Assembly (NCBI GenBank): GCA_964475265.1
Contig: CAYYVY010000001.1
Location: forward strand, 21,390 to 85,389
Direction: 5' to 3'
Origin: an uncultured Anaerolineaceae bacterium
GTDB taxonomy: Bacteria; Chloroflexota; Anaerolineae; Anaerolineales; E44-bin32
DNA: 64,000 nt
The position numbers were made by a program, and so were the translations under genes. This document shows positions 6,814 to 63,198 of the stretch, piece by piece. The notes beneath the pieces are model-generated. The model saw nothing but the letters and a program-made list of their open reading frames with translations. It did no database searches and had not been told where the DNA came from. Within the stretch, counting starts at the first letter, position 1; the number at the start of each line of letters is the position of its first letter.

Positions 6814-6871
6814 GGGTTGATTCCTTTCTATATCACAGTACAGTGCTGATGAAATTTCTCCGTTCGAATAA

Positions 6872-7966: not shown

Positions 7967-8034
7967 AAAAGCCTTCCTTTATATCGAGAGGTATCATTTG
8001 GGATCTCTGGAATATCCGTTTATCAATTTACCTT

Positions 8035-10234: not shown

Positions 10235-10250
10235 TTTCGATCTTGCCGGA

Positions 10251-12222: not shown

Positions 12223-12346
12223 GGCCGTTGGCAGGATCGGATGATGACTACATTCTAGCGTCATTTTACCAAGAAGGCACGTGAGTGCAGGCATCTCAGA
12301 TTACGATTTGGTGTTGTTATTTACAACGGTAATGAAGGAGGAGAAC

Positions 12347-17961: not shown

Positions 17962-18978
17962 ATGCGCGTTTTAATCACGGGGGGCACAGGTTTTATTGGA
18001 AAACCGCTGACGCGTAGGGCATTGCAGCGCGGCTGGAACGTGACGCTGGTTGTGAGGACACCCGATTCGAGGGTGGCGCGCGAGCTTGCGGACCAGGGGG
18101 CCAACCTGGTCTTGGGCGACGTCACCGATCGCGCTACCTTGGAGGCGGCATTTTCGGTCACTCAACCTGAACTATTCTTTCACAACGCAGGTTGGTATGA
18201 GTTGGGAATCCCGCGTCGCATGCGAAGACGAATGTGGGCCGTCAATGTAGAGGGTACGGAAAATGCGCTGACGTTGGCAGCCGAGCACGACGTGCACAAG
18301 TCCATCTACACTTCATCCACCACGGCGCTCGGGGACACTGGAGGAGAGCTTGTGGACGAGCGGTTCACTCGTCGTGCAGAACCTCTCAGCTACTACGAGT
18401 ACACCAAGAGCGAAGCGCATGAACTTGCTTTGCGCCATCAAGCGGCCGGCGAACCCGTGGTCATCGCCTGTCCGGCGCAGGCGATTGGTCCTGGCGATCA
18501 CTCGGCTTTTGGACAATTCGTTCGTCTATTTGTGCGTGGTTTGCTGCCGCCTTTCATTTGGGGAGCGGAAAGCATCTTCACCTTCGGACATGTGGATGAA
18601 GTCGCCGAGGCGTTGGTCCTGGCGGGAGAGAAAGGAACTCCCGGGGAACTGTACTTCGTTGGGGGGAAAGAATTATTCATGCGAAAGATGGTGAATGTGT
18701 GGGGAGATGCCGCCAACCGGAAACCGCCTTTCATCTGGCTGCCCAAACCCATTGCGTTGGCGCAAGCCGCGCTCATCGCTCCACTCCTCAGGCTTGCCGG
18801 AAAACAGGCATTCATCTCGCCGGAAGTCGTGCGCAGCAGCTTCGTGTCTTTTCGTTACAGCTCGGCCAAGGCAGAAGAACAACTGGGTGCACATTTCCGA
18901 TCCGCCGAGCAAGCTTGGAGCGATACGATCGAAGCGGAGATTTCTCGCCTGTCATCGAAGAGGGGTACCGAATTATAA
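17962..18978 (+). CDS. NAD-dependent epimerase/dehydratase family SDR
   Basis: MRVLITGGTGFIGKPL Rossmann motif; YEYTK (YxxxK). Confidence 0.8.
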   Translation: MRVLITGGTGFIGKPLTRRALQRGWNVTLVVRTPDSRVARELADQGANLVLGDVTDRATLEAAFSVTQPELFFHNAGWYELGIPRRMRRRMWAVNVEGTENALTLAAEHDVHKSIYTSSTTALGDTGGELVDERFTRRAEPLSYYEYTKSEAHELALRHQAAGEPVVIACPAQAIGPGDHSAFGQFVRLFVRGLLPPFIWGAESIFTFGHVDEVAEALVLAGEKGTPGELYFVGGKELFMRKMVNVWGDAANRKPPFIWLPKPIALAQAALIAPLLRLAGKQAFISPEVVRSSFVSFRYSSAKAEEQLGAHFRSAEQAWSDTIEAEISRLSSKRGTEL

Positions 18979-27242: not shown

Positions 27243-27459
27243 TGTATCTCCTCTCGAAATTCAGCAGGTTATTATAGGATAACAAATAATACACCCATGT
27301 GGAATAGTGATAGGTGTCCTGCAAATTACAATGCCCTTCTACACTGTTAGAGACGCATAAAGACGAATACCGTATAAGGTGGTTTGTCGCCGATGTTTTT
27401 ACGCGCATTAATGTGATTTAAATACGAACTCATGTTAGTTCGATATGAAGGAGTTATCC

Positions 27460-30400
27460 ATGCCGAAAAAGAAAGCAGAGCGAAAGTTCGTGCCATACGA
27501 TGGCAATGCCGCCGCAGCTCACGTAGCTTATGCTACGAATGAGGTGATCGCGATCTACCCCATCACACCTTCCTCACCTATGGGCGAGATTGCCGACGAG
27601 AAGGCAGTCAACGGTCAACCCAATATTTGGGGAACGGTCCCCAACGTGGTCGAAATGCAGGCAGAGGGCGGAGCTGCCGGAGCGGTCCATGGTGCTTTGA
27701 CGACCGGCGCTTTGACGACGACATTTACGGCCTCTCAGGGTCTGTTGTTGATGATCCCCAATATGTTCAAAATCGCTGGCGAACTGACGCCAGCTGTTTT
27801 TCACATCGCCGCACGTTCCGTCGCAGCGCAAGCGCTGTCGATTTTCGCTGACCACAGCGATGTAATGACCGCGCGATCCACTGGATGGGGTTTGCTCTCG
27901 TCCAACAGTCCCCAGGAAGTCATGGACATGGCACTGATCGCGCAAGCCGCCACTCTCGAAGCGAGCATTCCCTTCTTGCATTTTTTCGACGGTTTTCGTA
28001 CCTCGCACGAGATCCAGAAGATCGAAGAGCTGACCTATGACGACATGCGCGCTATGATCGACGATGAATGGGTCATTCGTCACCGCCAACGCGCCCTTTC
28101 CCCCGACCATCCCACGATCCGTGGAACGGCGCAAAATCCGGATGTATTTTTCGCCGCGCGCGAGACGGTCAATGCCTACTACCAAAGAGCGCCCCAGATC
28201 GTTCAGGGTGCGATGGACCGCTTCGCCAAGATCGTGGGGCGGCAGTATCACCTCTTTGATTACGTCGGAGCGCCGGACGCCGAACGCGTCGTGATCATGA
28301 TGGGCTCCGGTGCGGAGACGACACATGAAGTTGTAGAACACCTCATCAAACAAGGCGAAAAAGTCGGCTTGATCAAGGTCCGGCTATACCGTCCTTTCGA
28401 CGGTAATGCCTTGGTCGCCGCCCTGCCCAAGACCGTGCGCAGCATTTCGGTATTGGACCGCACCAAAGAGCCGGGCGCGGAAGGCGAACCGCTTTACCTG
28501 GATGTGCAAAACGCAATCGCCGAAGCTGTTACCGAAGGCCGTCTCAGCCGCGACGATATACCTCTCGTCGTAGGCGGTCGTTACGGATTGGGCTCACGCG
28601 AATACAACGCCGGCATGGCGAAATCGGTATTCGACAATCTGGCCGATGACAAGCCGAGGAATCATTTCACCGTTGGCATCGAAGATGACGTCACGCATAG
28701 CAATTTGCCTTGGGATAATTCGTTCTCGTCCTTGCCCGAGGGTGTCCATCAGGCGATGTTCTATGGCTTGGGCGGCGATGGTACCGTCGGTGCTAACAAG
28801 AACTCGATCAAGATCATCGGCAAGGCGACCGACAATTACGCGCAGGGGCACTTCGAATACGATTCGAAGAAATCCGGTTCAATGACTATCTCGCATCTGC
28901 GTTTCAGTCCAACCCCCATTCGCAGTACGTACTTGATCCAGCAGGCGGAATTCTTGGCCTGCCACGCATTCCAATTCCTCGAACGGGTGGATATCGTCAA
29001 GAACCTGAAACCGGGCGGCATTTTCCTGCTCAACAGCCAATATCCTGCTGATGAAGTCTGGGATCATCTGCCGTATGAAGTACAGCAGGCATTGATTGAT
29101 AAACAGGCCAAGTTTTACCTGATCGACGCCTATTCCCTTGCCGATTCGTTGGGATTGGGGGCGCGCATCAACGTCATCATGCAGTCGGCATTCTTCAGCA
29201 TCTCGGACGTTCTGCCAGAAGACAAGGCGATGAAGATGATGGAAATGGCCGTCGAAGACACCTATGGCGATAAAGGCAAATCCATCGTCGAGATGAACAT
29301 AAAATCTGCCAACCTCGCCCGGGAACGCATCCATGAGGTGGCGGTGCCGAAGAAAGCCACATCGGATATCCACATGCGTCCTCCGGTTCCGGAAGAGGCG
29401 CCTGAGTTTGTGCAGCAAGTGACGGGTGAGATGATCGCTCGACGCGGTGCGCAGATTCCCGTTTCCTTACTGCCGAACGATGGTACCTATCCCGTCGGAA
29501 CGACGCGCTTCGAAAAACGCAACATAGCTCTCGAGATCCCGGTTTGGGACCCCGAAGCCTGCATCCAATGCAACCAATGTGCCGTGGCTTGTCCACATGC
29601 CACGATTCGGCCCAAGGTTTACGATGCCTCGTTCGCCAACGGCGATTCTCCGGAGGGTTGGCAAGCCACAGCGGCCAAGGGTCGTGGTTTCGATGGCATG
29701 CTGTACACCTTGCAGGTCTCGCCTGAAGACTGCACCGGCTGCGGCGCATGCGTGCATGTTTGCCCGGCCTTCGCCAAGGACGAGGCAGGCAAGAAGACGG
29801 ACCGGAAAGCCATCAATATGGCAGCGCAACCGCCAATCCGCGAGCAGGAAGTCGCCAAGTGGAATTACTTCCTCTCCATTCCGGATCTGAATCCCGAGTT
29901 GTTCAACCGCTTCACGACCAAAGGATCGCAGTTCATGCGCCCGTTGTTCGAGTTTTCCGGGGCTTGTGCCGGATGCGGTGAAACTCCGTATGTTAAATTG
30001 CTGACCCAGCTTTTCGGCGATCGGCTGATCATCGCCAACGCCACGGGTTGTTCATCGATCTATGGCGGCAACTTGCCCACCACGCCTTATGCGCCGCGGG
30101 ACGATGGGCGCGGACCAACTTGGTCGAACTCGCTCTTCGAGGACAACGCTGAGTTCGGTTTTGGGATGCGGTTGACGGTGGACAAACTGTCGGACATCGC
30201 GCGTAGGCTGCTGGAAAAAGTCGATCTCGCCGATAAATCCGATTTGGTGGCGCAGATCAAATCCGCGGACCTGAGCACGCCGGAAGCAATCGAGGCCCAG
30301 CGGGCGCGCGTCGAGGAATTGAAATCGGCTCTTCAAGGGAGCAAGGATGCAGAGGCCAACAATCTGCTCAGTGTTGCCGATTACCTGGTGCCGAAGTCGG

Positions 30401-31041
30401 TGTGGATCGTGGGTGGAGATGGCTGGGCGTACGACATCGGCTTTGGCGGCCTGGATCACGTGCTGGCCTCCGGGCGCAATGTCAACGTACTCGTACTCGA
30501 CACCGGTGTGTATTCCAACACCGGCGGCCAATCCTCAAAAGCAACCCCGCGTGGCGCAGTGGCGAAATTTGCCGCTGCGGGCAAAGAGATGCCCAAGAAG
30601 GATCTCGGCTCCATTGTCATGAGCTATGGGAACATCTACGTAGCGCAGGTCGCCTACGGGGCGAACATGACCCAGCTCATCAAGGCCTTCCAGGAAGCTG
30701 AAGCTTACGATGGTCCTTCCTTGATCATCGCTTACAGTCACTGCATTGCACATGGCATCAACATGACCACAGCGACCGATTTGCACCAGGATGCTGAAGA
30801 TAGTGGGTTCTGGCCGCTCTTCCGCTTCAACCCAATGCTCTCGGAAGAAGGAAAAAACCCACTGCAGCTTGACTCCAAACCACCGAAAGAGGACATTTCG
30901 GAATTTGCCTATAAGCAAAACCGGTTCCGCTCCTTGCGCGCTGCAGACCCGGACCGGGCAGAAATGCTCTTGCAAGCCTTGCGGGATGATGTAATTGCTC
31001 GCTGGAAATTCTTCGAGCAAATGGCAAATCTCGACTTGTAG
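27460..31041 (+). CDS. nifJ: pyruvate:ferredoxin (flavodoxin) oxidoreductase
   Basis: About 1193 aa. Two 4Fe-4S motifs, CIQCNQCAVACP and CTGCGACVHVCP. TPP-binding region GGDGWAYDIGFGGLDH. The ATG at 27460 lies 6 nt after AAGGAG. Confidence 0.95.
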   Translation: MPKKKAERKFVPYDGNAAAAHVAYATNEVIAIYPITPSSPMGEIADEKAVNGQPNIWGTVPNVVEMQAEGGAAGAVHGALTTGALTTTFTASQGLLLMIPNMFKIAGELTPAVFHIAARSVAAQALSIFADHSDVMTARSTGWGLLSSNSPQEVMDMALIAQAATLEASIPFLHFFDGFRTSHEIQKIEELTYDDMRAMIDDEWVIRHRQRALSPDHPTIRGTAQNPDVFFAARETVNAYYQRAPQIVQGAMDRFAKIVGRQYHLFDYVGAPDAERVVIMMGSGAETTHEVVEHLIKQGEKVGLIKVRLYRPFDGNALVAALPKTVRSISVLDRTKEPGAEGEPLYLDVQNAIAEAVTEGRLSRDDIPLVVGGRYGLGSREYNAGMAKSVFDNLADDKPRNHFTVGIEDDVTHSNLPWDNSFSSLPEGVHQAMFYGLGGDGTVGANKNSIKIIGKATDNYAQGHFEYDSKKSGSMTISHLRFSPTPIRSTYLIQQAEFLACHAFQFLERVDIVKNLKPGGIFLLNSQYPADEVWDHLPYEVQQALIDKQAKFYLIDAYSLADSLGLGARINVIMQSAFFSISDVLPEDKAMKMMEMAVEDTYGDKGKSIVEMNIKSANLARERIHEVAVPKKATSDIHMRPPVPEEAPEFVQQVTGEMIARRGAQIPVSLLPNDGTYPVGTTRFEKRNIALEIPVWDPEACIQCNQCAVACPHATIRPKVYDASFANGDSPEGWQATAAKGRGFDGMLYTLQVSPEDCTGCGACVHVCPAFAKDEAGKKTDRKAINMAAQPPIREQEVAKWNYFLSIPDLNPELFNRFTTKGSQFMRPLFEFSGACAGCGETPYVKLLTQLFGDRLIIANATGCSSIYGGNLPTTPYAPRDDGRGPTWSNSLFEDNAEFGFGMRLTVDKLSDIARRLLEKVDLADKSDLVAQIKSADLSTPEAIEAQRARVEELKSALQGSKDAEANNLLSVADYLVPKSVWIVGGDGWAYDIGFGGLDHVLASGRNVNVLVLDTGVYSNTGGQSSKATPRGAVAKFAAAGKEMPKKDLGSIVMSYGNIYVAQVAYGANMTQLIKAFQEAEAYDGPSLIIAYSHCIAHGINMTTATDLHQDAEDSGFWPLFRFNPMLSEEGKNPLQLDSKPPKEDISEFAYKQNRFRSLRAADPDRAEMLLQALRDDVIARWKFFEQMANLDL

Positions 31042-32355: not shown

Positions 32356-33336
32356 CTACAAGTATCCATGTTCGCAATACCAGTCGTAGGCTTCTTGCGC
32401 AGCCTGGTGGAATGGTTTGGGGTTCTGCAAGTTTAATTCCCGTTTCGACTTCGTTGTGTCACAGTAGAGGTATTCACGCGTCATGCGCAGCTGTGCCCCG
32501 TTGAAGGGCAGCGGCAGCCATTTTCCCAGAATGTCGCAAAGCCAGGCTGCAGGTCCGATCGCTCGAGCCGGGATTTTTAGCCACGGTGCACGCCGTCCTG
32601 CAATTTCCGTCAGCGTGCTGAAAACCTGATAATGCGATAGATTTTCGCCGCCGAGAATGTAGCGTTCACCAGAACGCCCGCGGCTTGCTGCGGCGAGATG
32701 TCCGGCGACGACGTCGTCGATGTGTACCACGTTGATTCCGCCATCCATCCAGAAAAACCCCCAACCGCGCGCGGCTTCGGTGACCATCGCCCCACTGATT
32801 TGGTTGAGGTCACCCGGACCGATGACCACACTGGGGTTGACGATCACGACCTCCACACCTCGATCGATGTATTTGAGCGCTTCCAATTCCGATTCTCGTT
32901 TGGCGTAGCCGTAGGGAAATCGTTGCGGGGGCAGGTTGAAGGTGTGTTGTTCCGTGAGCAGTTCGTCGTGCTGTGGAACCCCCAAAGCGGCCACGGAGCT
33001 GGTGAGCACCACCCGCCTTACACCAGCGCCGGCAGCGGCGCTGAGGACGTTTCCCGTGCCCGCCACGGCGGTCTGCCGGACGAGTTCAGGCTGACGCCAA
33101 TAGGCGGATTGCGCCGCGGTGTGAAAGACAAGATCTACATTACGAAGCGCTTGTGGGAGCGTGTCGGGCCTTAAAATGTCCCCGACGTAATATTCGACAG
33201 GCATCCCTTGCAGCGCTTGCAGCGATGAGGATTGACGATGAAGCGCACGGACTTCGTAGCCGTGTGAAATCAAAGCACGACAAATGGACGACCCGATAAA
33301 TCCCGTCGCTCCGGTGACGAGGACCCGTTCAGTCAA
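32356..33336 (-). CDS. NAD(P)-dependent epimerase/dehydratase-family SDR (reductase-like)
   Basis: VLVTGATGFIGS Rossmann motif; YGYAK (YxxxK). It overlaps the upstream alpha-oxoamine synthase by 8 nt. Confidence 0.75.
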   Translation of the reverse strand: MTERVLVTGATGFIGSSICRALISHGYEVRALHRQSSSLQALQGMPVEYYVGDILRPDTLPQALRNVDLVFHTAAQSAYWRQPELVRQTAVAGTGNVLSAAAGAGVRRVVLTSSVAALGVPQHDELLTEQHTFNLPPQRFPYGYAKRESELEALKYIDRGVEVVIVNPSVVIGPGDLNQISGAMVTEAARGWGFFWMDGGINVVHIDDVVAGHLAAASRGRSGERYILGGENLSHYQVFSTLTEIAGRRAPWLKIPARAIGPAAWLCDILGKWLPLPFNGAQLRMTREYLYCDTTKSKRELNLQNPKPFHQAAQEAYDWYCEHGYL

Positions 33337-51967: not shown

Positions 51968-52045
51968 GCCCCCGAGAATCGAAACGGTAATTGGGAGGCT
52001 CGAACGGGGTTGCCGAGAATGTCACTTCCCCGTCCTACGGATTTG

Positions 52046-54214
52046 ATGAAACAAGTCGTTCAAGACGTTCGCTCCGGCAAGACCAGCGTGACCGAAGTCC
52101 CTGTGCCCGTTCCGGGTCCGGGTACGGCATTGGTGCGTACTGCGGCCTCGCTTGTCTCGGCGGGGACGGAGCGCGCTGTCGTCAAGTTTGCCGGTAAATC
52201 CCTGTTGGGGAAGGCCCGTTCACGACCGGACCTGGTACGTCAGGTGCTGGAAAAAGTACGACGCGAGGGTCTGCTGACGACCATTGAGGCTGTGCAGAAC
52301 CGGCTCGACCAGCCCATGCCGCTGGGGTACTCTTCCGCCGGAACGCTGGTGGCCGTGGGGGACGGTTTACATGGTTTCCGCGTCGGCGATCGTGTGGCGT
52401 GTGCCGGTGGGGGTTACGCCGTGCACGCCGAATTCGCCGTTGTGCCGCAGAACTTGCTGGCGCACCTGCCGGAAGGCGTGGAATTCGAAGAGGGCGCTTT
52501 CGCCACGTTGGGCGCAATCGCCTTGCACGGTTTTCGCCTGGTAGAAGCGCAAATGGGCGAACGTGTGGCGGTCATCGGCCTGGGACTGCTGGGACTGCTT
52601 TCCGTGGGCATCGCCCGCGCCGCCGGATGTTCGGTGTTCGGGATCGATCTCGATCCGGAGCGAGTCGAACGGGCGAAGACATTGGGTGCAGTGGCGGTCA
52701 CCAATCCGAACGCCGAGCAGGCGGCAGCGGCTTTCAGCCAGGGACTGGGCTGCGACGTGGTGATGATCTGCGCCGACACGCAATCCAACGATCCGGTCGA
52801 ACTTGCGGGAACCATCGCGCGCGATCGGGCGAGAGTCGTGGCCGTCGGCGCGGTGGGTATGGACATCCCCCGACGCACGTACTATCAAAAGGAGCTCCAA
52901 TTCATCGTTTCGCGGTCCTACGGCCCGGGGCGTTACGATCCGCTGTACGAAGAAGCGGGAATCGATTACCCGCCGGGTTACGTACGCTGGACCGAAGGGC
53001 GTAATCTGGGCGCTTTTCTCGAGACGTTGGCGCGAGGATCATTCGACGTTGCTTCGCTGATCAGCCACCGCTTTGCCATCGCAGACGCTGCTGAGGCGTA
53101 CGATTTGATCACGGGCAACACCAAGGAATCGTTCCTGGGTGTCCTGCTCACGTATCCACAGGAAGAAGCCATTGACGCGGGCGCGCGTCTCGTCGAGCTG
53201 GATAAGCGCAAGATTTCCACCTCGTCTCGAATACATTTGGGTGCGATCGGTGCGGGAAATTTCGCTACGGCGGTACTTTTTCCCGCCTTGCGGAAAGTAA
53301 AAGGGGTCGAGCGGATTGGTTTGGTCACAGCGAGCGGGTCGAAGAGTGCGCAGGTGGGACAGCGTTTCGGCTTCCGCTACGCTTCCACGGATGTAAACGA
53401 GGTCCTCAAGGACAAAAACATCAACACCATCGCCGTGCTCACCCGGCATCATCTGCATGCTTCGCAGGTGGTTGCGGCACTGAACGCCGGCAAGCACGTC
53501 TTCTGTGAAAAGCCGCTGGCTCTACGGCGCGACGAATTGGGCGAGATCATGCAGGCGCTGGAACAAAGCGATCGCATGCTGACCGTGGGATTCAACCGCC
53601 GCTTTTCACCATTCGCCGTTTGGTTGAAGACCTTCTTCGATGCGGCAGACGAGCCGTTGGCGATGCATTATCGCATCAACGCCGGTCAGCTGCCGCTGGA
53701 CCATTGGCTGCACGACGCCGAACAAGGCGGCGGCCGCATCATCGGCGAGGCTTGTCATTTCATCGATTTTCTTACCTTCCTCAATGGGTCACCTCCCGTG
53801 CAAATTTCCGCAGTCGGTATGCCGGACGATCAGCGCTATCGCGAGGACAACGTGAGCATTACCCTCGAGTTCGCCGACGGGTCGATCGGGACGGTGAGTT
53901 ATTTGGCCGCCGGCGACCGTGCCTTTCCCAAGGAGCGCGTCGAGATTTTCGGCGGTGGACGGGTGGCTGTGCTCGACGATTTCCGGCGAGTCGAAACCAT
54001 GCACAATGGACGGCGTAAAGTGCGTCGTGCCTGGCTGCGCCAGGACAAAGGGCATCGCCAGGAATGGGAGGCTTTTTCGAAAGCGGTCGCCGAAGGCGGT
54101 CCGCCACCCATCCCATACGAGCATTTGGTCGGCGTCAGCTTAACTTCGATTGCTGCCGTGGAGGCGCTTCGCTCGCTCACAACCGTGAAGATCGAATCCA
54201 TACCAAGATCATAA
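52046..54214 (+). CDS. bi-domain oxidoreductase (Zn-ADH/GroES-like N-domain + Gfo/Idh/MocA C-domain)
   Basis: MKQVVQDVRSGKTSVTEVPVP is a typical family N-terminus. Rossmann motif 1 is VIGLGLLGLL. The second half contains LGAIGAGNFA and FCEKPLAL (Gfo/Idh/MocA EKP motif). Alternative starts lie at 52010 (TTG) and 52019 (ATG). Confidence 0.75.
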   Translation: MKQVVQDVRSGKTSVTEVPVPVPGPGTALVRTAASLVSAGTERAVVKFAGKSLLGKARSRPDLVRQVLEKVRREGLLTTIEAVQNRLDQPMPLGYSSAGTLVAVGDGLHGFRVGDRVACAGGGYAVHAEFAVVPQNLLAHLPEGVEFEEGAFATLGAIALHGFRLVEAQMGERVAVIGLGLLGLLSVGIARAAGCSVFGIDLDPERVERAKTLGAVAVTNPNAEQAAAAFSQGLGCDVVMICADTQSNDPVELAGTIARDRARVVAVGAVGMDIPRRTYYQKELQFIVSRSYGPGRYDPLYEEAGIDYPPGYVRWTEGRNLGAFLETLARGSFDVASLISHRFAIADAAEAYDLITGNTKESFLGVLLTYPQEEAIDAGARLVELDKRKISTSSRIHLGAIGAGNFATAVLFPALRKVKGVERIGLVTASGSKSAQVGQRFGFRYASTDVNEVLKDKNINTIAVLTRHHLHASQVVAALNAGKHVFCEKPLALRRDELGEIMQALEQSDRMLTVGFNRRFSPFAVWLKTFFDAADEPLAMHYRINAGQLPLDHWLHDAEQGGGRIIGEACHFIDFLTFLNGSPPVQISAVGMPDDQRYREDNVSITLEFADGSIGTVSYLAAGDRAFPKERVEIFGGGRVAVLDDFRRVETMHNGRRKVRRAWLRQDKGHRQEWEAFSKAVAEGGPPPIPYEHLVGVSLTSIAAVEALRSLTTVKIESIPRS

Positions 54215-56460
54215 TGGCATCGTTGAGGACCATCCTGCGCGCGGTAGGTGAACTCGGTCCCAGGCCCACGCTGCTTTATGGGCTGTATCGAGTTCTCTTG
54301 CGTTCGGGTTGGTTTCGCTGGCGAACTCCACGACAAACCTGGCAGGACGTTCCGTTCACTTCCTGGCTTCGGCCGGCCATACCCAGCGATCCCGAGCAAT
54401 ATCTTCAATATCGTAAACATATCAATACGCGTTTCTTTCTCCATCCCGGCGATGAATTTGTCGGCGCATTAAAGCAGGTGATCGGTCAGAACCAGAGTAC
54501 GGCAATCTCACAAGCCGATGCGATTCTCGGGGGCAATTTCCGATTGTTCGGAGTGGATGGTAATGATTTGGGTTTCCCGCCCGATTGGGGCAGGTTTTGT
54601 CCAACACCGGGAGATTCGGCAGGCGTTTCTGTCCCCCTGAACCGCCATTGGACGACCTACGACGAAAACGACTTTGCGCAAGACGTCAAACTGCTCTGGG
54701 AACCGGCGCGATTTGGATGGGTGTTTCCATTGGCCAGGGCGTACATTTTGACGCAAGATACACGCTACGCCGAAGCCATTTGGATCTTGATTGATTCGTG
54801 GCGGGACATCAACCCACCCAACTCGGGACCGCACTGGTCTTCGGCGCAAGAGGCGGCGATTCGTTTGCTGGCGGTGATTTTTGCCCTGCACATAACCTTT
54901 GAATATATTGCCAAATCACCACAGAAGCTGTGTGAAGTCGCGAGCTTGATCGCAGCGCATGCAGCGCGAATTCCTCCGACGTTGATTTATGCCCGGGCGC
55001 AAGGCAACAATCATCTTTTGGTCGAGGCGGTGGCGCTGTACAGTGTGGGCTTGTTGTTCCCGGAATTCCGCAAGGCGAAAACGTGGAAGCGGCTGGGCCG
55101 GCGTTGGCTGGAACGATCGCTGGCGGAGCAAATCTTCGCCGATGGCGGCTACGTTCAGCACTCGACGAACTACCATCGCCTGGCGCTCCAGGCGGCTCTG
55201 TGGGCGGTTCGCCTTGCCGAAGTAAACGACGAAGCATTACCTCCTGATTTGCTGGCAGCGTTGCAGAAAGCTGCCCACTGGCTTTACAGTATGATCGATA
55301 GGAAAAGCGGACACGTACCCAACCTTGGTCCCAACGACGGTGCGCTGATCTTTCCACTGAGCACCCGTCCGTTTGAAGATCACCGCCCGACGTGCCAGGC
55401 GGCTTCGTTCGCTTTTCTGGAACGCAAACCATTCCCGGTTGGACCCTGGGATGAAGAGCTTATCTGGTTTGGTCTGCAATCCGGCGTTTCCCGGGACGAC
55501 ACCCGTCGTGGAAGTGGGCCGCCTATCGAGATTGATCGAGGCGGCGAGAAAGCTATGCAGCCAATTGGATTGGGCGATCATTTTCCCGCAAGCGGCTTTA
55601 CCATCCTGCGCGGAGAAAACTCGTGGGGAATGCTGCGCTGCGCCCGTTTCAGAACTCGACCGGGTCACTCGGATCAGCTGCACTTTGATTTGTGGTGGCA
55701 GGGGTACAACGTTGCCTGTGATCCTGGCACGTACCTGTATAATGGGAAACCACCCTGGGACAATCCTTGGATCGGGGCTGCGTTTCACAACACCGTCTTG
55801 ATCGACGACCTGGAGCCCATGCGCCGAGCGGGCAGGTTTTTATGGGTCGATTGGGCGCAGGGTGCGTTCATCGGCCGTTGGAAGTCACAGAACGGTGCCA
55901 TCGAGGTAGTCATTGGGGAGCACCACGGTTATCGGAGAATCGGGCTTGTGCACAGGCGGACGATTGCGAGGATTGGAGACGCACATTGGTTGATCGTAGA
56001 CGATGTTATTGGGTCGGGATTGCATGGCGTGTCGATCGGCTGGACGATGCCAGATTTCCCTTGGAAGCTGAATGCGCACGGGACATCGCTTGACCTCGGC
56101 GAATCTGAAATCGAGGTGAGTTTGGAAGGGCAGGTAGGAGACACGGGGCTTTATCGGGCTGGGGCCCTGGTCGCCGGAAATGGGGTATGTGCGAATCCAA
56201 ACCTGCACGGCTGGCGTTCGATGGGGTATGCGGTTAAAGAGCCTGCGCTTCGTTTGGTGAAACGATTCGAAGCGTCCATTCCGGTACGTCATTGCACTTG
56301 GTGGTCCTTCGACGCTGCGCCTCGTGACGGAGTGGAGATCGTCTGGAATGAGCCCGATCGGGATACACTGTCTTTTTCCCGTATTGGCTGGCAAGGACAG
56401 CGTTTGGAATTGAACGATGCACATCTTGTTGATTCATCAAGTTTTCGCCGCGCTGGGTGA
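54214..56460 (+). CDS. heparinase II/III-family (alginate-lyase-fold) protein
   Basis: The ATG at 54214 overlaps the previous TAA (TAATG). Motifs include GNNHLLVEAVALYSVGLLFPEF and GHSDQLHFDLWWQG, resembling the heparinase II/III C-terminal region. The size is about 748 aa. Confidence 0.65.
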   Translation: MASLRTILRAVGELGPRPTLLYGLYRVLLRSGWFRWRTPRQTWQDVPFTSWLRPAIPSDPEQYLQYRKHINTRFFLHPGDEFVGALKQVIGQNQSTAISQADAILGGNFRLFGVDGNDLGFPPDWGRFCPTPGDSAGVSVPLNRHWTTYDENDFAQDVKLLWEPARFGWVFPLARAYILTQDTRYAEAIWILIDSWRDINPPNSGPHWSSAQEAAIRLLAVIFALHITFEYIAKSPQKLCEVASLIAAHAARIPPTLIYARAQGNNHLLVEAVALYSVGLLFPEFRKAKTWKRLGRRWLERSLAEQIFADGGYVQHSTNYHRLALQAALWAVRLAEVNDEALPPDLLAALQKAAHWLYSMIDRKSGHVPNLGPNDGALIFPLSTRPFEDHRPTCQAASFAFLERKPFPVGPWDEELIWFGLQSGVSRDDTRRGSGPPIEIDRGGEKAMQPIGLGDHFPASGFTILRGENSWGMLRCARFRTRPGHSDQLHFDLWWQGYNVACDPGTYLYNGKPPWDNPWIGAAFHNTVLIDDLEPMRRAGRFLWVDWAQGAFIGRWKSQNGAIEVVIGEHHGYRRIGLVHRRTIARIGDAHWLIVDDVIGSGLHGVSIGWTMPDFPWKLNAHGTSLDLGESEIEVSLEGQVGDTGLYRAGALVAGNGVCANPNLHGWRSMGYAVKEPALRLVKRFEASIPVRHCTWWSFDAAPRDGVEIVWNEPDRDTLSFSRIGWQGQRLELNDAHLVDSSSFRRAG

Positions 56461-57732: not shown

Positions 57733-58368
57733 ATGAGCGTACCGCTGGTCATTCCTGGAATGCCGTTACGAAAGCGGCTGTTCGATTTGGTCCTGACCAT
57801 TCCCGGGTTGATCGTGATAAGTCCGCTGCTTGCGGTTACAGCTGTGCTCGTTCGAATCCGTTTGGGAACACCGATACTCTTCCGGCAAATGCGGCCGGGA
57901 TACCATGCAGTGCCGTTCGAAATCTATAAATTCCGAACGATGAACGAGGCGTGCGACTCAGAAGGCAATCTACTTCCGGATGAAGCTCGACTCACAAAAT
58001 TGGGACGTTTCCTGCGCTCATCCAGCATCGACGAACTGCCGGAGTTGTTCAACGTTTTACGCGGCGAGATGAGTCTCGTGGGCCCGCGGCCGTTATTATT
58101 GCAGTATCTCGAGCGCTACTCCCCTGAACAAGCGCGGCGCCACGAGGTGCTGCCCGGGATTACCGGATGGGCACAGATCGGGGGGCGCAACGTGATCACC
58201 TGGAATGAAAAATTTGAACGCGATGTTTGGTATGTCGACCATTGGTCGCTGCATCTTGACCTGAAAATCCTGTTCTTGAATTTTTGGAAAGTAATCAAGC
58301 GGGAGGGGATCAGCCAGCTAGGACACGCTACAGCGGAGGAATTCAAGGGGAACCGGGACGGTGAATGA
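57733..58368 (+). CDS. monotopic phosphoglycosyl transferase (bacterial sugar transferase, PglC/WbaP-C-like)
   Basis: RLFDLVLTIPGLIVISPLL re-entrant helix, PILFRQMRPG, FEIYKFRTM, DELPELFNVLRGEMSLVGPRP, PGITGWAQI. Confidence 0.9.
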   Translation: MSVPLVIPGMPLRKRLFDLVLTIPGLIVISPLLAVTAVLVRIRLGTPILFRQMRPGYHAVPFEIYKFRTMNEACDSEGNLLPDEARLTKLGRFLRSSSIDELPELFNVLRGEMSLVGPRPLLLQYLERYSPEQARRHEVLPGITGWAQIGGRNVITWNEKFERDVWYVDHWSLHLDLKILFLNFWKVIKREGISQLGHATAEEFKGNRDGE

Positions 58369-58547: not shown

Positions 58548-58739
58548 GTGAAGGAACCACTTGAGTTTTATGATATCAAGAGTAAATCAAAGTTCACGAG
58601 CGCAAATTGGAGGATCGAATCCAAGGAATCAAAGGGGAAAACGCGGTATTTCGCCGTTGCGAGCGCTCCTGAAGGAGATCACGAGGCCTGGCGAATCGTA
58701 GCCGCTGATTTCGCAAAGAAACATATGCAATCCTGGTAA
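58548..58739 (+). CDS. small basic beta-rich protein (63 aa), unknown function
   Basis: The GTG at 58548 lies 6 nt after GAGGAGG. A strong terminator follows 24 nt downstream. Product: MKEPLEFYDIKSKSKFTSANWRIESKESKGKTRYFAVASAPEGDHEAWRIVAADFAKKHMQSW. Confidence 0.5.
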   Translation: MKEPLEFYDIKSKSKFTSANWRIESKESKGKTRYFAVASAPEGDHEAWRIVAADFAKKHMQSW

Positions 58740-58797: not shown

Positions 58798-58812
58798 GCA
58801 ATTTCGGGCTTG

Positions 58813-58821
58813 TGTTATCAT
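58813..58821 (+). promoter_or_regulatory. possible extended -10 promoter for the E1/lipoyl-acyltransferase cassette
   Basis: TGtTATCAT at 58813-58821, just after the terminator and 57 nt before the ATG at 58878. Confidence 0.3.
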
Positions 58822-58877
58822 GTCCCTGTTTCCCGATTTGCCCGGTGAGGGGAAGTGTCGGAAAGAAGTGCATTCGG

Positions 58878-59807
58878 ATGAAGAAGTCTTCCCAAAATGA
58901 CGCAGATCTCTACCGTAAGATGCTGCGCATCCGTCTTTTTGAAGAACGATTGTTGGAAATGTTCCCCAGCGGCCAGATATATGGCACGACTCACACCTAT
59001 ATCGGTCAGGAAGCTAATGCCGTGGGGGTTTTAGCGACGTCGCAGGCGGGCGATGTCGTCGTCAGCAACCATCGCTGTCACGGTCATTTCTTAGCGTACG
59101 GCGGTTCGATGCAGGCATTGGCTGCAGAATTACTTGGCCGCGAGACGGGGATTTGTGGGGGCCGTGGCGGCAGCCAGCACATAAAGTGGGAGAATTTCTT
59201 TGCCAACGGCATTCTCGGTGGAACGGTGCCGATCGCAGTGGGCATGGCATTTGCAGAAGCCGCAAAGAAGGGCAATGCGCTCGTATACACCTTCATCGGT
59301 GACGGAACGCTCGGTGAAGGTGTCGTCTACGAAGCGATCAACATGGCTTCACTCTGGCGTCTGCCGCTGTTTTTTGTCGTCGAAAACAATCGCTACGCGC
59401 AGAGCACCCCCGTGGAACTGAATCTGGCGGGCGATATATGCGCCCGGTTTGAGGCGTTTGGTATTTCGACGTTGGCGCATGAAGCAGACGACGTGCTTGA
59501 AATTATGCGACTCGCTCAAGATATTTCTAACTCGATTCGCGCTGGTGAAGGCCCGCATGCGTTGATTCTGCACACCTATCGATTCGCACCACATTCAAAA
59601 GGGGACGACACACGTGATCCCGACGAAATCGCACGGTATCGGGCGCGCGATCCGTTAAAGGCGGCTGCGGCGCGGGTGCAGCAGGCAGTGAAAGGCGAGA
59701 TTGAGAAATCGGTGGCGGCCGAAGTAGACGAGGCTTATGCGTGTGCCGAAAACGATCCCTTTCCCGCTGCGGAAACCCTTACGCCACCGTTGGATGAGCT
59801 CGCATGA
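58878..59807 (+). CDS. TPP-dependent 2-oxoacid (pyruvate/acetoin-type) dehydrogenase E1 component, alpha subunit
   Basis: LYRKMLRIRLFEERL, HRCHGH, and TPP motif GDGTLGEGVVYEAINMASLWRLPLFFVVENN (GDG-x26-NN). Confidence 0.85.
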   Translation: MKKSSQNDADLYRKMLRIRLFEERLLEMFPSGQIYGTTHTYIGQEANAVGVLATSQAGDVVVSNHRCHGHFLAYGGSMQALAAELLGRETGICGGRGGSQHIKWENFFANGILGGTVPIAVGMAFAEAAKKGNALVYTFIGDGTLGEGVVYEAINMASLWRLPLFFVVENNRYAQSTPVELNLAGDICARFEAFGISTLAHEADDVLEIMRLAQDISNSIRAGEGPHALILHTYRFAPHSKGDDTRDPDEIARYRARDPLKAAAARVQQAVKGEIEKSVAAEVDEAYACAENDPFPAAETLTPPLDELA

Positions 59808-60802
59808 CGACCGTGCGGGAAGCCCTGAACGAATCGCTTCAAGCTTGTCTGCGGGAGTCCCCCGAAGTTTATTTTCTCGGAGAGGACATCCTCGATCCCT
59901 ATGGCGGTGCGTTTAAATTAGCAGCGGGTTTATCAACGCAATTTCCGGACCGCGTGATCACGACGCCGGTGTCGGAAGCGGGCATCGTGGGTGTAGGTAT
60001 CGGTATGGCGTTGCGCGGTCTGCGTCCGGTGGTTGAAATCATGTTCGGGGATTTTGTCACCCTGGCTGCCGATCAATTGATCAATCACGCAGCGAAAATC
60101 CGTTGGATGAGTGGAGATGCAGCCCGGATTCCTTTGGTCGTGCGCACTCCCATGGGAGGCGGCCGTGGCTATGGGCCGACACACAGCCAGACGTTGGAAA
60201 AGCATTTTCTAGGGGCGCCTGGCTTGCGTGTGGTTGCCGTATCCGATTTGGATGATCCCGGCGCGTTGCTGCATCATGCTGTATTCGATGACAATGATCC
60301 GGTGCTGCTGGTGGAACATAAACTGCTCTATCCCAGCACCATCTTGGCCCTGGATAACGCGGAGGCGTACGATATCGAGCGGCAAGGAAATGGATATCCC
60401 GGATATTTCATAAAGTTACGCGGTTCACCGGAAACGCGTCTGACGATGGTGGCCTATGGCTACATGGCGACTCTGGCGCGAGATGCCATGCGCAGCCTGG
60501 CCATAGAGAAGGAAATCTTTTCTGAGCTGATTGTGCCCACCCAGCTCAGCCCATTCAAACTGGATTTCCTGTGCCAGCGTGCATCCCAAACCCGTCATGT
60601 GCTGGTCATCGAAGAAGGAACGCAGACGATGGGATGGGGTGCGGAAGTGTCGGCAGGCTTGCATGAAGCGGTATCCTCGAATTTACGGGTGGGCCGCGTC
60701 GCTGCGTTGGACATGCCCATTCCTGCCGCAGCCCGGATTGAGGCGCAGGTATTGCCCTCGGTTGAGCGGATCAAGGACATGGCCCTGGAGTTGGCTGTTT
60801 GA
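59804..60802 (+). CDS. 2-oxoacid dehydrogenase E1 component, beta subunit
   Basis: ATGA overlap with the alpha subunit. FLGEDILDPYGGAFKLAAGLSTQFPDRVITTPVSEAGIVGVGIGMALRGLRPVVEIMFGDF is a typical E1-beta N-domain. A transketolase-C-like C-domain follows. Confidence 0.85.
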   Translation: MTTVREALNESLQACLRESPEVYFLGEDILDPYGGAFKLAAGLSTQFPDRVITTPVSEAGIVGVGIGMALRGLRPVVEIMFGDFVTLAADQLINHAAKIRWMSGDAARIPLVVRTPMGGGRGYGPTHSQTLEKHFLGAPGLRVVAVSDLDDPGALLHHAVFDDNDPVLLVEHKLLYPSTILALDNAEAYDIERQGNGYPGYFIKLRGSPETRLTMVAYGYMATLARDAMRSLAIEKEIFSELIVPTQLSPFKLDFLCQRASQTRHVLVIEEGTQTMGWGAEVSAGLHEAVSSNLRVGRVAALDMPIPAAARIEAQVLPSVERIKDMALELAV

Positions 60803-60862
60803 TGGATCGACCGAAGAATGCGTACGTCCTCTCTATTTTGATTATTATTGGAGATGCGGGTG

Positions 60863-61966
60863 ATGTCGACTGCATTTGAAGTGCGTGTGCCGCTGTTGAA
60901 CCCCAATGAACGTGAGGCGCAGCTCGCGGCACTGCATGTTTCAGAGGGTAAGTCGATCTCGACGGGCGATTTACTTTGCACCCTGGAGACCACGAAATCG
61001 ACCGCTGATGTGGTTGCCGAGCGGGATGGTTACGTCGTGGGTATCCGTGCGGCCGTCGGCGATCGAGTTGTGGCGGGAGAAGTATTTTGCTGGCTGGCTG
61101 ATGATCTGGAGTGGGAAGCACCTGCTGCGGAAGAAGCGAAATCGAAGCAGGCAGCGGCTGGTCTTGATCTACACATCACCGAGCCGGCGATGGCGTTGGC
61201 CGAGAAATTGGGCGTAGATTTGGACGCCCTGCCGGGCGATGCCTGGATTACCGAGGACGTCGTACGCCGTTATGCGCAGCGTGAAACGCCGCTTGCGATC
61301 CCGAATCTGGAAATTGATTCGAAGTCGATCGTCGTATACGGCGGCGGTGGCCACGCCAAAGCGTTGATCGATTTGATTCGCAAGCTTGGGATGTTCAACA
61401 TCGTGGGAATTTTGGACGATGGTCTTGCAGCAGAAAATCAAGTCATGGGCGTCCCGGTTTTGGGTGGTGCTGAATTGCTCGAAACGCTGAAGGAGCGTGG
61501 GCTTGAGCGCGCCGTAAACGCAGTCGGCGGTATCGGCGACATGCAAAGCCGCGTGAGGGTGTTCGAAAGGCTGCGCCAGGCTGGTTTTGCTTGCCCTGCA
61601 CTGGTTCACCCCACGGCGTTTGTCGAAGAAAGTGCGCAGCTTGCGGAAGGCGTTCAGGTATTTCCACACGCCTACATTGGGAGCGACGTAGAAATCGGCT
61701 TCGGCGTGATCGTAAACACTGCCGCGGTGGTCTCGCACGATTGTCGCCTCGCGGATTACGCCAACGTTGCGCCGGGTGCGTTGTTGGCCGGGGGTGTGGA
61801 AATTGGAGCGCGGGCGTTGATCGGGATGGGCACCACACTCAATTTAAACGTCACGATCGGTGCCGGTGCACGGGTGGGAAACAGTGCGGTGGTCAAGGCC
61901 GATGTGCCTGCGAACGGCATTGTGCGTGCGGGCGCGGTTTGGCCGGAACCGAAACACAATGGATGA
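60863..61966 (+). CDS. lipoyl domain + E3/peripheral-subunit-binding domain fused to a PglD/NeuD-family hexapeptide sugar acyltransferase (no E2 catalytic core)
   Basis: The lipoyl-like motif is GDLLCTLETTKSTADVVAERDGYVVGIRAAVGDRVVAGEVFCWL, with Lys45 at 60995-60997. The linker is A/E/K-rich. The PSBD-like segment is EPAMALAEKLGVDLDALPGDAWITEDVVRRY. IVVYGGGGHAKALIDLIRKLG... then begins the hexapeptide repeats, with VVSHDCRLADY. GGAG lies 9 nt upstream of the ATG at 60863 (other in-frame starts: 60848 TTG, 60854 ATG). Confidence 0.8.
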   Translation: MSTAFEVRVPLLNPNEREAQLAALHVSEGKSISTGDLLCTLETTKSTADVVAERDGYVVGIRAAVGDRVVAGEVFCWLADDLEWEAPAAEEAKSKQAAAGLDLHITEPAMALAEKLGVDLDALPGDAWITEDVVRRYAQRETPLAIPNLEIDSKSIVVYGGGGHAKALIDLIRKLGMFNIVGILDDGLAAENQVMGVPVLGGAELLETLKERGLERAVNAVGGIGDMQSRVRVFERLRQAGFACPALVHPTAFVEESAQLAEGVQVFPHAYIGSDVEIGFGVIVNTAAVVSHDCRLADYANVAPGALLAGGVEIGARALIGMGTTLNLNVTIGAGARVGNSAVVKADVPANGIVRAGAVWPEPKHNG

Positions 61967-61989: not shown

Positions 61990-63198
61990 ATGGAGGTTGT
62001 CGGATTGACTGAGGAGCGCGGATCTACGTTTTCGATCGGCATGTCTGCGCCGGACCTGACAGACGCAGAACGCGAAGCGGTGCTGGAGGTACTGCGTACG
62101 CCGCGTTTGAGCATGGGGCTGCAGATCGAAGCGTTCGAAGCGGCTGTGGCGCAATACGTAGGGGCTAAGCACGCCGTCGCCGTCAGTTCTGGAACCGGGG
62201 GATTGCATTTGTGCGTACGCGCCGCAGGCATAACGGACGGCGATTGGGTGATCACCACGTCGTTTTCGTTCATATCTTCGGCCAACGTGATTCTTTACGA
62301 GCGTGCAACACCGGTGTTCGTCGACGTCGATCCACGCACGGGCAACATCGATCCGGCGCAAGTTGCACGCGCTGCGCAGGATCTTTTACGCGGCGGATCG
62401 TCGGCCGCGCACTGGCTGCCGAGGAAGGGCTCGCAGAGCGACGGGCGTCTGAAAGCTATCCTGCCCGTGGATGTTTTCGGTCAGCCGGCTGATTACGATG
62501 CCCTCAACGTAGTCGCCAAGGAGAACGACCTGGTAATCATCGAGGATTCGTGTGAGGCCCTCGGTGCTTGTTACAAGGGTCGTCCGGCGGGGATGTTGGG
62601 GGATGCCGGCGTTTTCGCCTTCTATCCCAACAAACAAATCACAACGGGCGAAGGCGGACTGATCGTTACGCAGGACGAGGCATGGGCGGGTACTTGCCGT
62701 GCACTGCGCAACCAGGGACGCGCCCCGGGTGACACGTGGCTCGAGCATACACACCTGGGCTATAACTACCGTTTGGATGAAATGAGCGCAGCTTTGGGAT
62801 GCGCGCAAATGGATCGGTTGACGCAGTTATTGGAAAAACGCAGCCGTGTGGCTGACTGGTACGGAGAACGCCTGGCAGAAAATTCCGGCGTTGAAGCGCC
62901 GAATCTGAGTCCGAACACCACGCGAGTCAGCTGGTTTGTCTATGTGGTGCGTTTGGCCGCTGACGTCGTGCGGGACAGTCTCGTCGAGCGGTTGGCTGCG
63001 GCAGGTATTCCTTCCCGCCCATATTTCGTCCCCATCCATACACAGCCGTTTTTTGTGGAACGCTTCGATTATCGCGTTGGCGATTTTCCGGTGACGGAGG
63101 ACCTGGGGAGGCGTAGTCTGGCCTTGCCGTTTTCATCGATCATGACGGAGAGGGAAGTTGATCATGTCTGCCGGTCACTGGCCGGGAGCATGAAATAA
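61990..63198 (+). CDS. DegT/DnrJ/EryC1/StrS-family sugar aminotransferase
   Basis: FEAAVAQYVGAKHAVAVSSGTGGLHL, IEDSCEALGA, and PLP-lysine context FAFYPNKQITTGEGG. The start is uncertain (61990 or 62041). Confidence 0.85.
   Translation: MEVVGLTEERGSTFSIGMSAPDLTDAEREAVLEVLRTPRLSMGLQIEAFEAAVAQYVGAKHAVAVSSGTGGLHLCVRAAGITDGDWVITTSFSFISSANVILYERATPVFVDVDPRTGNIDPAQVARAAQDLLRGGSSAAHWLPRKGSQSDGRLKAILPVDVFGQPADYDALNVVAKENDLVIIEDSCEALGACYKGRPAGMLGDAGVFAFYPNKQITTGEGGLIVTQDEAWAGTCRALRNQGRAPGDTWLEHTHLGYNYRLDEMSAALGCAQMDRLTQLLEKRSRVADWYGERLAENSGVEAPNLSPNTTRVSWFVYVVRLAADVVRDSLVERLAAAGIPSRPYFVPIHTQPFFVERFDYRVGDFPVTEDLGRRSLALPFSSIMTEREVDHVCRSLAGSMK

Follow-up and report, generated by a model that had tools for sequence, protein, structure and literature searches.

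The window analyzed here, a stretch of 64,000 nucleotides from an uncultured Anaerolineaceae bacterium (Chloroflexota), carries at positions 60863–61966 a gene for a fusion protein with the domain order lipoyl, linker, peripheral-subunit-binding domain (PSBD), linker, PglD_N and left-handed β-helix, as assigned by Pfam, NCBIfam, PDB, AlphaFold2 and Foldseek. The order of genes along the window is a PglC-like phosphoglycosyl transferase, a short open reading frame (ORF) of 63 amino acids, the E1α and E1β subunits of a heterotetrameric 2-oxoacid dehydrogenase, the fusion, and a DegT-type aminotransferase, all on the plus strand. The ORF of the fusion is intact, with its ATG at 60863, a GGAG 10 nt upstream and a stop codon that ends at 61966. 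An alternative in-frame TTG at 60848 would add five residues; the homologues begin at the ATG instead. Of what an earlier note on this DNA had stated about the ORF, the coordinates stand, start and stop having been checked, and the length has to be corrected from 368 to 367 residues.

The lipoyl domain spans residues 6–75 (60878–61087; Pfam Biotin_lipoyl, 2.6e-11), and the predicted lipoyl-lysine is Lys45, codon AAA at 60995–60997, with codon and motif both as the earlier note had them. In the fusion family the motif around this lysine is E-[TS]-[TS]-K, compared with the canonical E-T-D-K-A. Over residues 5–98, lipoyl models of the E2 (dihydrolipoyl acyltransferase) type outscore those of biotin carriers (NCBIfam: sucB at 6.7e-10, biotin carriers at 3e-7 or weaker). 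The best PDB matches to the N-terminal part are likewise E2 lipoyl domains, and Foldseek returns lipoyl and biotin carboxyl carrier protein (BCCP) domains.

The C-terminal part is wholly covered, from residue 156 to residue 367, by a Rossmann-like PglD_N domain and a left-handed β-helix. The former (residues 156–237; 61328–61573) is matched by Pfam PglD_N at 2.9e-13 and modelled with a predicted local distance difference test score (pLDDT) of about 90; its counterpart in PglD and PerB is the site of nucleotide-sugar binding. The latter, the acyltransferase domain (residues ~243–355; 61589–61927), is defined by Hexapep (5.6e-11), by TIGR03570 and by the alignment to PerB. The TIGR03570 (NeuD/PglB/VioB) match, over residues 156–354, scores 185.6 bits against a curated cut-off of 160.8 (NCBIfam). 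The nearest protein in the PDB is Caulobacter PerB (E = 8.5e-33), followed by the PglB acetyltransferase domain (PglB-ATD), VioB and PglD; Foldseek also matches PerB, PglB-ATD and PglD to this half, with a TM-score of 0.85 (normalised to the target length) and a root-mean-square deviation of 2.1 Å for PerB (4ea7). The catalytic histidine is His292 (codon CAC, 61736–61738), whose equivalent in PglD we take to be His125, and it aligns to PerB His141, the position changed in the deposited H141N and H141A mutants (4eaa, 4eab). Score, fold and catalytic histidine place the fusion securely in the NeuD/PglB/VioB family. A Pfam scan of the whole protein at E ≤ 0.01 returned no match to 2-oxoacid_dh (PF00198), and because this defining catalytic domain is absent the fusion is not a member of the E2 family, though it may work like one.

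Between these two halves lies the PSBD (residues ~103–141; 61169–61285). On the single sequence, Pfam E3_binding gives E = 0.073, which is not significant, and a profile of this segment from 22 Chloroflexota relatives found only two PDB chains, both of them PSBDs, at marginal E-values. When the profile was built from 49 diverse family members, PSBDs made up nine of the ten top PDB matches, with E-values from 1.4e-5 to 4e-3 (1w4i at 1.4e-5, then 1w4j, 2cyu, 1w4h, 1bal, 2btg, 2eq8, 6zzl and 2eq9). The alignments make the loop of the fusion PSBD three residues shorter than in classical E2 PSBDs. The AlphaFold2 model (a monomer from a 27-sequence alignment, mean pLDDT 72, with 50–60 in the β-helix) places two helices here, at residues 107–116 and 131–141, preceded by a β-barrel (4–79) and a disordered linker (90–100), and followed by the Rossmann-like domain and the β-helix. 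Profile and model together argue that the predicted PSBD is real and short-looped. The disordered linkers on its two sides measure about 23 and 13 residues in the model. If fully extended, they would seem to give the arm enough reach for E1 as well as for the transferase.

Every point of the architecture that the earlier note had read from the letters thus holds: Pfam, NCBIfam, the PDB, AlphaFold2 and Foldseek return the lipoyl domain, the linker, the PglD_N domain and the β-helix with its catalytic histidine, and the loss of the E2 catalytic core agrees with the Pfam scan. Of the profiles it had named, Biotin_lipoyl, PglD_N and Hexapep match and 2-oxoacid_dh is absent, whereas E3_binding is weak; the E3/E1-binding domain that it had proposed is carried instead by the 49-member profile and the two modelled helices.

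The two genes that precede the fusion encode both subunits of a thiamine diphosphate (ThDP)-dependent E1. E1α, the ThDP-binding subunit (58812–59807; Pfam E1_dh, 3.7e-54), has its likely true start at the ATG at 58878. Its best PDB match is human pyruvate dehydrogenase (PDH) E1α, with the GDG...NN motif for ThDP and the histidine of YR..HS aligned, and against the TIGR03182 model (PDH_E1_alph_y) it scores 268 bits, under the equivalog cut-off of 393.85. The E1β gene (59804–60802; Pfam Transket_pyr, 2.9e-32, and Transketolase_C, 3.1e-15), which encodes the pyrimidine-binding and C-terminal domains, starts within the E1α stop (ATGA), and its product aligns end to end with Thermus thermophilus and human E1β. 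It contains what we take, from the human enzyme, to be the ThDP-activating glutamate (TPVSEAG) and the histidine of the “THSQ” stretch.

The fusion recurs in many other genomes. In a search over 5.8 billion proteins, clustered at 90% identity, more than 120 clusters have the same architecture at 54–81% identity, with named members from Chloroflexota and Anaerolineae, and among the best 150 representatives at 50% identity about 105 match over the full length, down to 31% identity (HMMER). Starting from a distant member, a further search brought in relatives named from Armatimonadota, Omnitrophota, Gemmatimonadota and Bacteroidota (Polaribacter, Dokdonia). Overall, members are named from five phyla, and one further carrier is a spore-former. 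The database search for this domain order that the earlier note had suggested therefore returns it from several phyla. In a species-level genome scan a relative was present in 437 genomes, the best 80 of which provided the Chloroflexota loci studied below; the fusion genes there come from metagenome-assembled genomes and nearly all are full-length matches. The family, of at least 344 full-length members, is large and old, and the fusion is therefore under selection. In an alignment of these 344 (31–100% identity) Glu42 is conserved in 341, Lys45 in 343 and His292 in 342. Lys45 appears to be as constrained as the catalytic base His292, and in a barrel that otherwise varies, such invariance would be expected of a residue to which a cofactor is attached. 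Two proteins, P0158 (865 aa) and P0242 (638 aa), have three or four PglD-like units, each complete with PglD_N and β-helix, in tandem in a single chain, an unusual concatenation for an enzyme that is normally homotrimeric.

The linkage to E1 is absolute in the Chloroflexota. E1α and E1β lie upstream on the same strand in all 66 of the 80 Chloroflexota loci that have at least 2.3 kb of upstream DNA, and in 59 of those 66 E1β ends within 250 bp of the fusion (the E1 genes and the fusion are called the cassette below). In 44/60 Chloroflexota loci the cassette is preceded by a phosphoglycosyl transferase gene, and in 48/76 a DegT gene lies within 800 bp downstream. At one locus (L029) the five-gene module stands alone, with Mfd upstream and a formyltransferase gene downstream, beyond which the genes have no evident link to sugar synthesis. 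The neighbourhood search, also put forward in the earlier note, gives much the same result outside the Chloroflexota, where ten loci were studied (L081–L090): E1 is directly upstream in nine of the ten, as an α–β fusion in seven and split in two, and in the seven fused cases the end of the E1 gene overlaps the start of the lipoyl–PglD fusion.

The surroundings of these ten loci are informative as to function. Two (L083, L086) are legionaminic/pseudaminic-type nonulosonic-acid clusters with the cassette in the 4-N-acetyltransferase slot; in L087 it lies in a perosamine-like cluster of the spore-former and in L088 in a 2,3-dehydratase/3-amino-sugar cluster, and in all four the cassette sits where an N-acetyltransferase normally sits. 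A further nonulosonic-acid-type cluster (L084, with NeuB, a CMP-transferase and two DegT genes) also holds an ordinary PglD-like gene, and L085 has the cassette in a nucleotide-sugar cluster. In two flavobacteria (L081, 5954–9110; L082, 5990–9113) a fused E1 and the lipoyl–PglD fusion are directly downstream of non-ribosomal peptide synthetase (NRPS) genes with condensation, adenylation and peptidyl carrier protein domains, joined in L082 by a thioesterase domain and a phosphopantetheinyl transferase, and no sugar genes are nearby. In Gemmatimonadota (L090, 5010–8131) a bare pair of fused E1 and lipoyl–PglD fusion is found between VapB-like and ParE-like toxin–antitoxin genes on a 10-kb contig without sugar genes, a hint that the pair can move as a unit. 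The tenth locus (L089, 7001–7960) encodes P0216, which keeps the lipoyl domain (LETSK) and is missing the PSBD, with glycosyltransferases upstream, DegT downstream and no E1 gene within 7 kb. P0216 is the only PSBD-less member of the family and also the only one without an E1 neighbour; this single case would fit a role of the PSBD in docking E1, and the protein may be a decaying or re-purposed form.

No gene for an E2 core (2-oxoacid_dh) was found among the scanned genes of the window (43.9–63.2 kb), around the L029 cassette, or among the Pfam-listed genes of the nine non-Chloroflexota loci with an E1–fusion pair. Counting only the scanned or Pfam-listed neighbourhoods that combine such a pair with amino-sugar genes, the result is 0/8. 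The acyl-lipoyl arm is therefore without any other evident outlet in these neighbourhoods. At one Chloroflexota locus (L011, 6695–7978) a 427-aa protein with a zinc-ribbon-like N-terminal motif, a membrane segment and NHL-type repeats is encoded between E1β and the fusion, and L013, L017, L047, L069 and L078 have a gap of similar size, about 1.4 kb, at the same place. The L011 insert was considered as a possible E3 (lipoamide dehydrogenase, Lpd) and ruled out, its translation being an NHL-repeat-like membrane protein.

In the window itself, the genes around the cassette close a polysaccharide cluster that begins near 43.9 kb and contains a UDP-N-acetylmannosamine dehydrogenase, a 2-epimerase, four glycosyltransferases of the GT4 family, a Zn-alcohol-dehydrogenase/GFO oxidoreductase and a heparinase II/III-like protein. 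In the oxidoreductase (734 aa; 52010–54214, +) a Zn-alcohol-dehydrogenase-like half is fused to a GFO/IDH/MocA half, and its gene overlaps by about 150 bp the start of the heparinase-like gene (798 aa; 54064–56460, +); together with the GT4 gene that follows, the two recur upstream of the cassette in some loci (e.g. L001–L003, L014, L024). The phosphoglycosyl transferase (57733–58368; 211 aa; Pfam Bac_transf, 6.7e-62; NCBIfam EPS_sugtrans) is a small, PglC-like enzyme acting on polyprenyl phosphate, and an N-acylated UDP-amino sugar is its predicted substrate. The gene downstream of the fusion (61990–63198; Pfam DegT_DnrJ_EryC1, 4.7e-110) encodes a sugar 4-aminotransferase of the DegT/PglE/LegC type, for which the best NCBIfam models are LegC and PseC, both under their cut-offs. 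A search for a PglF-type dehydratase near the cassette gave only two distant short-chain epimerase/dehydratase genes (17962–18978 and 32356–33336), and no acyl carrier protein (ACP) or NRPS gene is found among the Pfam- and NCBIfam-scanned genes of the cluster.

Part of the gap of about 500 bp between the phosphoglycosyl transferase and E1α is filled by the 63-aa ORF (58548–58739; MKEPLEFYDIKSKSKFTSANWRIESKESKGKTRYFAVASAPEGDHEAWRIVAADFAKKHMQSW), a conserved ORF with no assigned function that was recognised by tblastn synteny. It is found at the same position in 19/80 related Chloroflexota loci at 60–92% identity (tblastn) and has no match in Pfam; its membership in the system is not certain. 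Rfam returned nothing across the window, this gap included. Much farther upstream, four consecutive paralogous genes for ABC-2 membrane proteins (5740–10288, minus strand) are followed by one for an ABC ATPase and by an ABC-ATPase/LytTR fusion (11227–12294).

The window also encodes a single-chain pyruvate:ferredoxin oxidoreductase (PFOR; 27445–31041, +; 1198 aa), an anaerobic-type route from pyruvate to acetyl-coenzyme A (CoA) that does not rely on the glycan-cluster E1 genes. Acetyl-CoA is thus made here without a PDH complex, and the E1 genes are not the cell's only route to it from pyruvate; the most fitting view is that the pair is reserved for the glycan module.

We believe that E1α, E1β and the fusion probably make up a dedicated 2-oxoacid:amino-sugar N-acyltransferase complex, in which the arm would be loaded by E1 and the acyl group passed on to a sugar amine. 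The earlier note had already suggested that the lipoyl arm supplies acyl groups to the sugar acyltransferase fused to it, and this functional coupling is now strongly supported by the adjacency of E1, the invariant lysine, the amino-sugar neighbours and the absence of an E2-core gene from the neighbourhoods scanned. The note had further described the protein as an E2 with its core replaced. As a description of the architecture this holds; as a statement of evolutionary direction it is one option. Given the close stand-alone homologues, a PglD-type enzyme may just as well have acquired a lipoyl–PSBD module.

The mechanism we propose would run as follows. PglD-family enzymes such as PerB and PglD are trimers with active sites between subunits, and the fusion presumably trimerises in the same way through its β-helix, each chain then offering a PSBD on which the α2β2 tetramer of E1, and perhaps also E3, could dock, together with a lipoyl group on Lys45 at the end of a flexible arm. 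E1 would decarboxylate a 2-oxoacid on ThDP, with pyruvate as the default guess because E1α is closest to PDH-type E1, and would then reductively acylate the lipoyl disulfide. The S-acyl-dihydrolipoyl arm would take the position that the pantetheine arm of acyl-CoA normally has in the β-helix active site. There His292 would deprotonate the 4-amino group of a UDP-4-amino-4,6-dideoxy-hexose, whose amine would come from the DegT aminotransferase encoded next to the fusion, and acyl transfer from sulfur to nitrogen would follow. The PglC-like transferase would load the N-acylated sugar onto undecaprenyl phosphate, priming the polysaccharide encoded upstream (43.9–58.4 kb), and a lipoamide dehydrogenase encoded elsewhere would re-oxidise the arm. 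The sequences show the architecture, the conservation of Lys45 and His292, the E1 neighbourhood and the amino-sugar context; we infer that Lys45 is lipoylated, that the fusion is a trimer, that E1 docks on the PSBD, that transfer goes directly from S to N, which acyl group is moved and that E3 is required. A fusion of this kind would mimic the trimer-based logic of the E2 core with an unrelated fold.

Several observations weigh against this model. Stand-alone homologues of 220–238 aa, without the lipoyl and PSBD parts, are 53–60% identical to the fusion, and together with P0216 they suggest that the β-helix can use a soluble donor, probably acyl-CoA. Contacts to CoA in the NeuD/PglB/VioB family are mostly made by the backbone, and the sequence gives no sign that the CoA site has been lost. 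The PSBD presumably lacks two of the three arginines that form the “electrozipper” with E1 and E3 in the Geobacillus E2. The active-site motif of E3/Lpd is absent from the window and 90 related loci (1.3 Mb in total), and the window genes scanned with Pfam include no lipoate ligase; both re-oxidation of the arm and its lipoylation therefore require genes outside those seen here. Finally, if the acyl group were acetyl, what advantage the complex would have over acetyl-CoA in an organism with PFOR is unclear, a doubt that raises the possibility of a non-acetyl group.

The alternative that we take most seriously, though we think it rather unlikely, is that the β-helix uses acyl-CoA as its relatives do. 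E1 and the arm would then make acyl-CoA locally, the acyl group being moved from dihydrolipoyl to bound CoA either by the β-helix site or by a housekeeping E2, or the lipoyl–PSBD part would only tether or regulate the enzyme. That every characterised relative (PerB, PglD, PglB-ATD, VioB) binds acetyl-CoA or CoA in crystal structures speaks for it, as do the stand-alone homologues and the PSBD-less P0216 with no E1 nearby. A private generator of acetyl-CoA, however, seems redundant beside the PFOR of the window, and no E2 catalytic domain is found in the scanned or Pfam-listed genes near the cassette; moreover, the near-absolute conservation of Lys45 and the adjacency of E1 favour a catalytic arm over a tether. 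We keep to direct transfer as the preferred reading.

The E1 pair could also have a different task altogether, since in avilamycin and paulomycin biosynthesis PDH-E1-like pairs have been reported or proposed to attach C2 branches to keto-sugars (PMC4425429) and the E1 here is likewise within a sugar cluster; the fusion would then be an ordinary N-acetyltransferase with an accessory domain. We regard this as improbable: a lipoyl protein is unmentioned in that description (PMC4425429), whereas here a lipoyl domain with an invariant lysine and a PSBD stand beside E1, and the cassette is paired with aminotransferases and occupies the acetyltransferase slot of nonulosonic-acid clusters. We give slightly less credence still to reading the N-terminal domain as a carrier of biotin or as a structural barrel that bears no modification. 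Pfam Biotin_lipoyl spans both kinds of carrier, Foldseek also gives BCCP domains, and the ETTK motif departs from E-T-D-K-A. The best sequence matches are nevertheless E2 lipoyl domains, with the margin of sucB over the biotin carriers given above; an MKM motif is missing, as is any neighbouring carboxylase or carboxyltransferase gene, the domain is accompanied by a PSBD and E1 genes, and an unmodified barrel needs no invariant lysine. An assembly chimera or a mis-called ORF joining two genes, which the earlier note had named as a possible refutation, is ruled out for practical purposes by recurrence: the architecture is uninterrupted in hundreds of independent assemblies from several phyla, some of the contigs being of megabase size.

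A broader proposal, which we put forward tentatively, is that the cassette is a portable, CoA-independent acyl module in which the specificity of E1 sets the N-acyl group, with a non-acetyl group in some lineages and with feeding of NRPS lines in flavobacteria. Candidate groups are glycolyl, propionyl, glyceroyl and hydroxybutyryl, each from the matching 2-oxoacid or ketose. Of three hints in this direction, two are the cassette beside an ordinary PglD-like acetyltransferase in L084 and the PFOR-derived acetyl-CoA in the organism of the window; that the cassette is found in clusters for sugars known with varied N-acyl groups raises the same possibility. The flavobacterial loci suggest that the cassette may also feed acyl units to non-ribosomal peptide lines, in a manner reminiscent of QncN/L/M (see below). 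The third hint comes from Tannerella: how its nonulosonic acids acquire an N-glyceroyl group, and a proposed N-glycolyl group, is described as unknown (PMC5378307). The analysis found nothing that connects these strains directly with the lipoyl–PglD fusion family.

If the preferred reading, direct transfer from the arm, is true, the cassette is an undescribed and widespread route that takes acyl groups directly from a 2-oxoacid to the surface sugars of bacteria and needs no acyl-CoA. Left-handed β-helix acyltransferases would gain a third type of donor, the acyl-dihydrolipoyl arm, after acyl-CoA and acyl-ACP, and the lipoyl cofactor, whose few functions are almost all in central metabolism, would gain a new job. 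The scaffold logic of E2 would prove modular, its swinging arm, docking domain and trimeric transferase being reusable with an unrelated catalytic fold. The cassette is also a candidate for the enzymes by which surface sugars and nonulosonic acids receive N-acyl groups other than acetyl, groups that shape antigenicity, and the portable-module proposal, if true, would supply missing enzymology for unusual N-acyl groups on bacillosamine-, perosamine- and legionaminic/pseudaminic-type sugars. At present the fusion is labelled “NeuD/PglB/VioB family sugar acetyltransferase” in hundreds of genomes and its E1 partners are labelled pyruvate dehydrogenase; both labels probably mislead metabolic reconstructions, for example where a PDH complex is inferred in anaerobic Chloroflexota.

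Full-text literature searches, whose coverage leaves out most subscription journals, returned no description of a lipoyl–PglD-type fusion or of its chemistry. One paper retrieved for NeuD together with lipoyl (PMC4875605) was set aside as irrelevant, as “lipoylation” is used there loosely for fatty acylation.

Among known systems, the closest in layout are the E2 enzymes of PDH and branched-chain 2-oxoacid dehydrogenase (BCKDH) complexes that work with a heterotetrameric E1, as in Gram-positive bacteria and mitochondria. They have the same order of lipoyl domain, linker rich in alanine, proline and charged residues, PSBD, linker and acyltransferase, the acyltransferase is likewise from a trimer-forming family, and the gene directly follows those of E1α and E1β. 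The fusion differs in its core, which is a PglD/NeuD-type β-helix with PglD_N and not the chloramphenicol acetyltransferase-like 2-oxoacid_dh domain (DHRxxDG), and in its predicted acceptor, a sugar amine in place of the thiol of CoA. It also differs in having no linked E3 gene, a PSBD loop shorter by three residues, and E-T-[TS]-K where E2 has E-T-D-K-A. The sugar acyltransferases PerB, PglD, PglB-ATD, VioB and LegH, by contrast, resemble the C-terminal ~210 residues of the fusion (40% identity to PerB in the Foldseek alignment) and share its genomic setting, either with a DegT aminotransferase and a phosphoglycosyl transferase or in nonulosonic-acid clusters. To these the fusion adds a lipoyl–PSBD extension of about 150 residues and an obligate E1 partner, and its predicted donor is its own acyl-dihydrolipoyl arm, where theirs is acetyl-CoA.

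Three further systems take E1 or lipoyl components into other settings, and none of them joins a lipoyl arm to a left-handed β-helix sugar N-acyltransferase. The lipoyl domain of the fusion matches the model of AcoC, the E2 of acetoin dehydrogenase (NF011457), at 3.6e-7 (NCBIfam). In AcoC a lipoyl domain is carried on a non-canonical catalytic domain, a C-terminal α/β-hydrolase fold, with an E1α/β partner, and the product is still acetyl-CoA; no glycan role is known for it. In the quinocarcin and scleric acid pathways, QncN/L/M and SclQ1–4 put a C2 unit, glycolyl, on an ACP by means of a ThDP-dependent E1-like enzyme, a lipoyl domain and an acyltransferase (PMC6335953). They resemble the cassette as an E1/lipoyl/acyltransferase set outside central metabolism, and in L081 and L082 the cassette has NRPS neighbours; compared by description, they differ in that the acyl group goes to the thiol of the ACP by way of a domain termed an acyltransferase catalytic domain by its authors, in that other domains are fused, and in that no sugar acceptor or β-helix is described. 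AviB1/AviB2 and Pau11/Pau12, finally, are PDH-E1-like proteins of deoxysugar clusters that take a C2 unit from pyruvate (PMC4425429). The chemistry proposed for them is a C–C branch on a 4-keto sugar, with no lipoyl carrier mentioned, whereas in the cassette the E1 genes are followed by a single protein in which a lipoyl carrier and an N-acyltransferase are fused.

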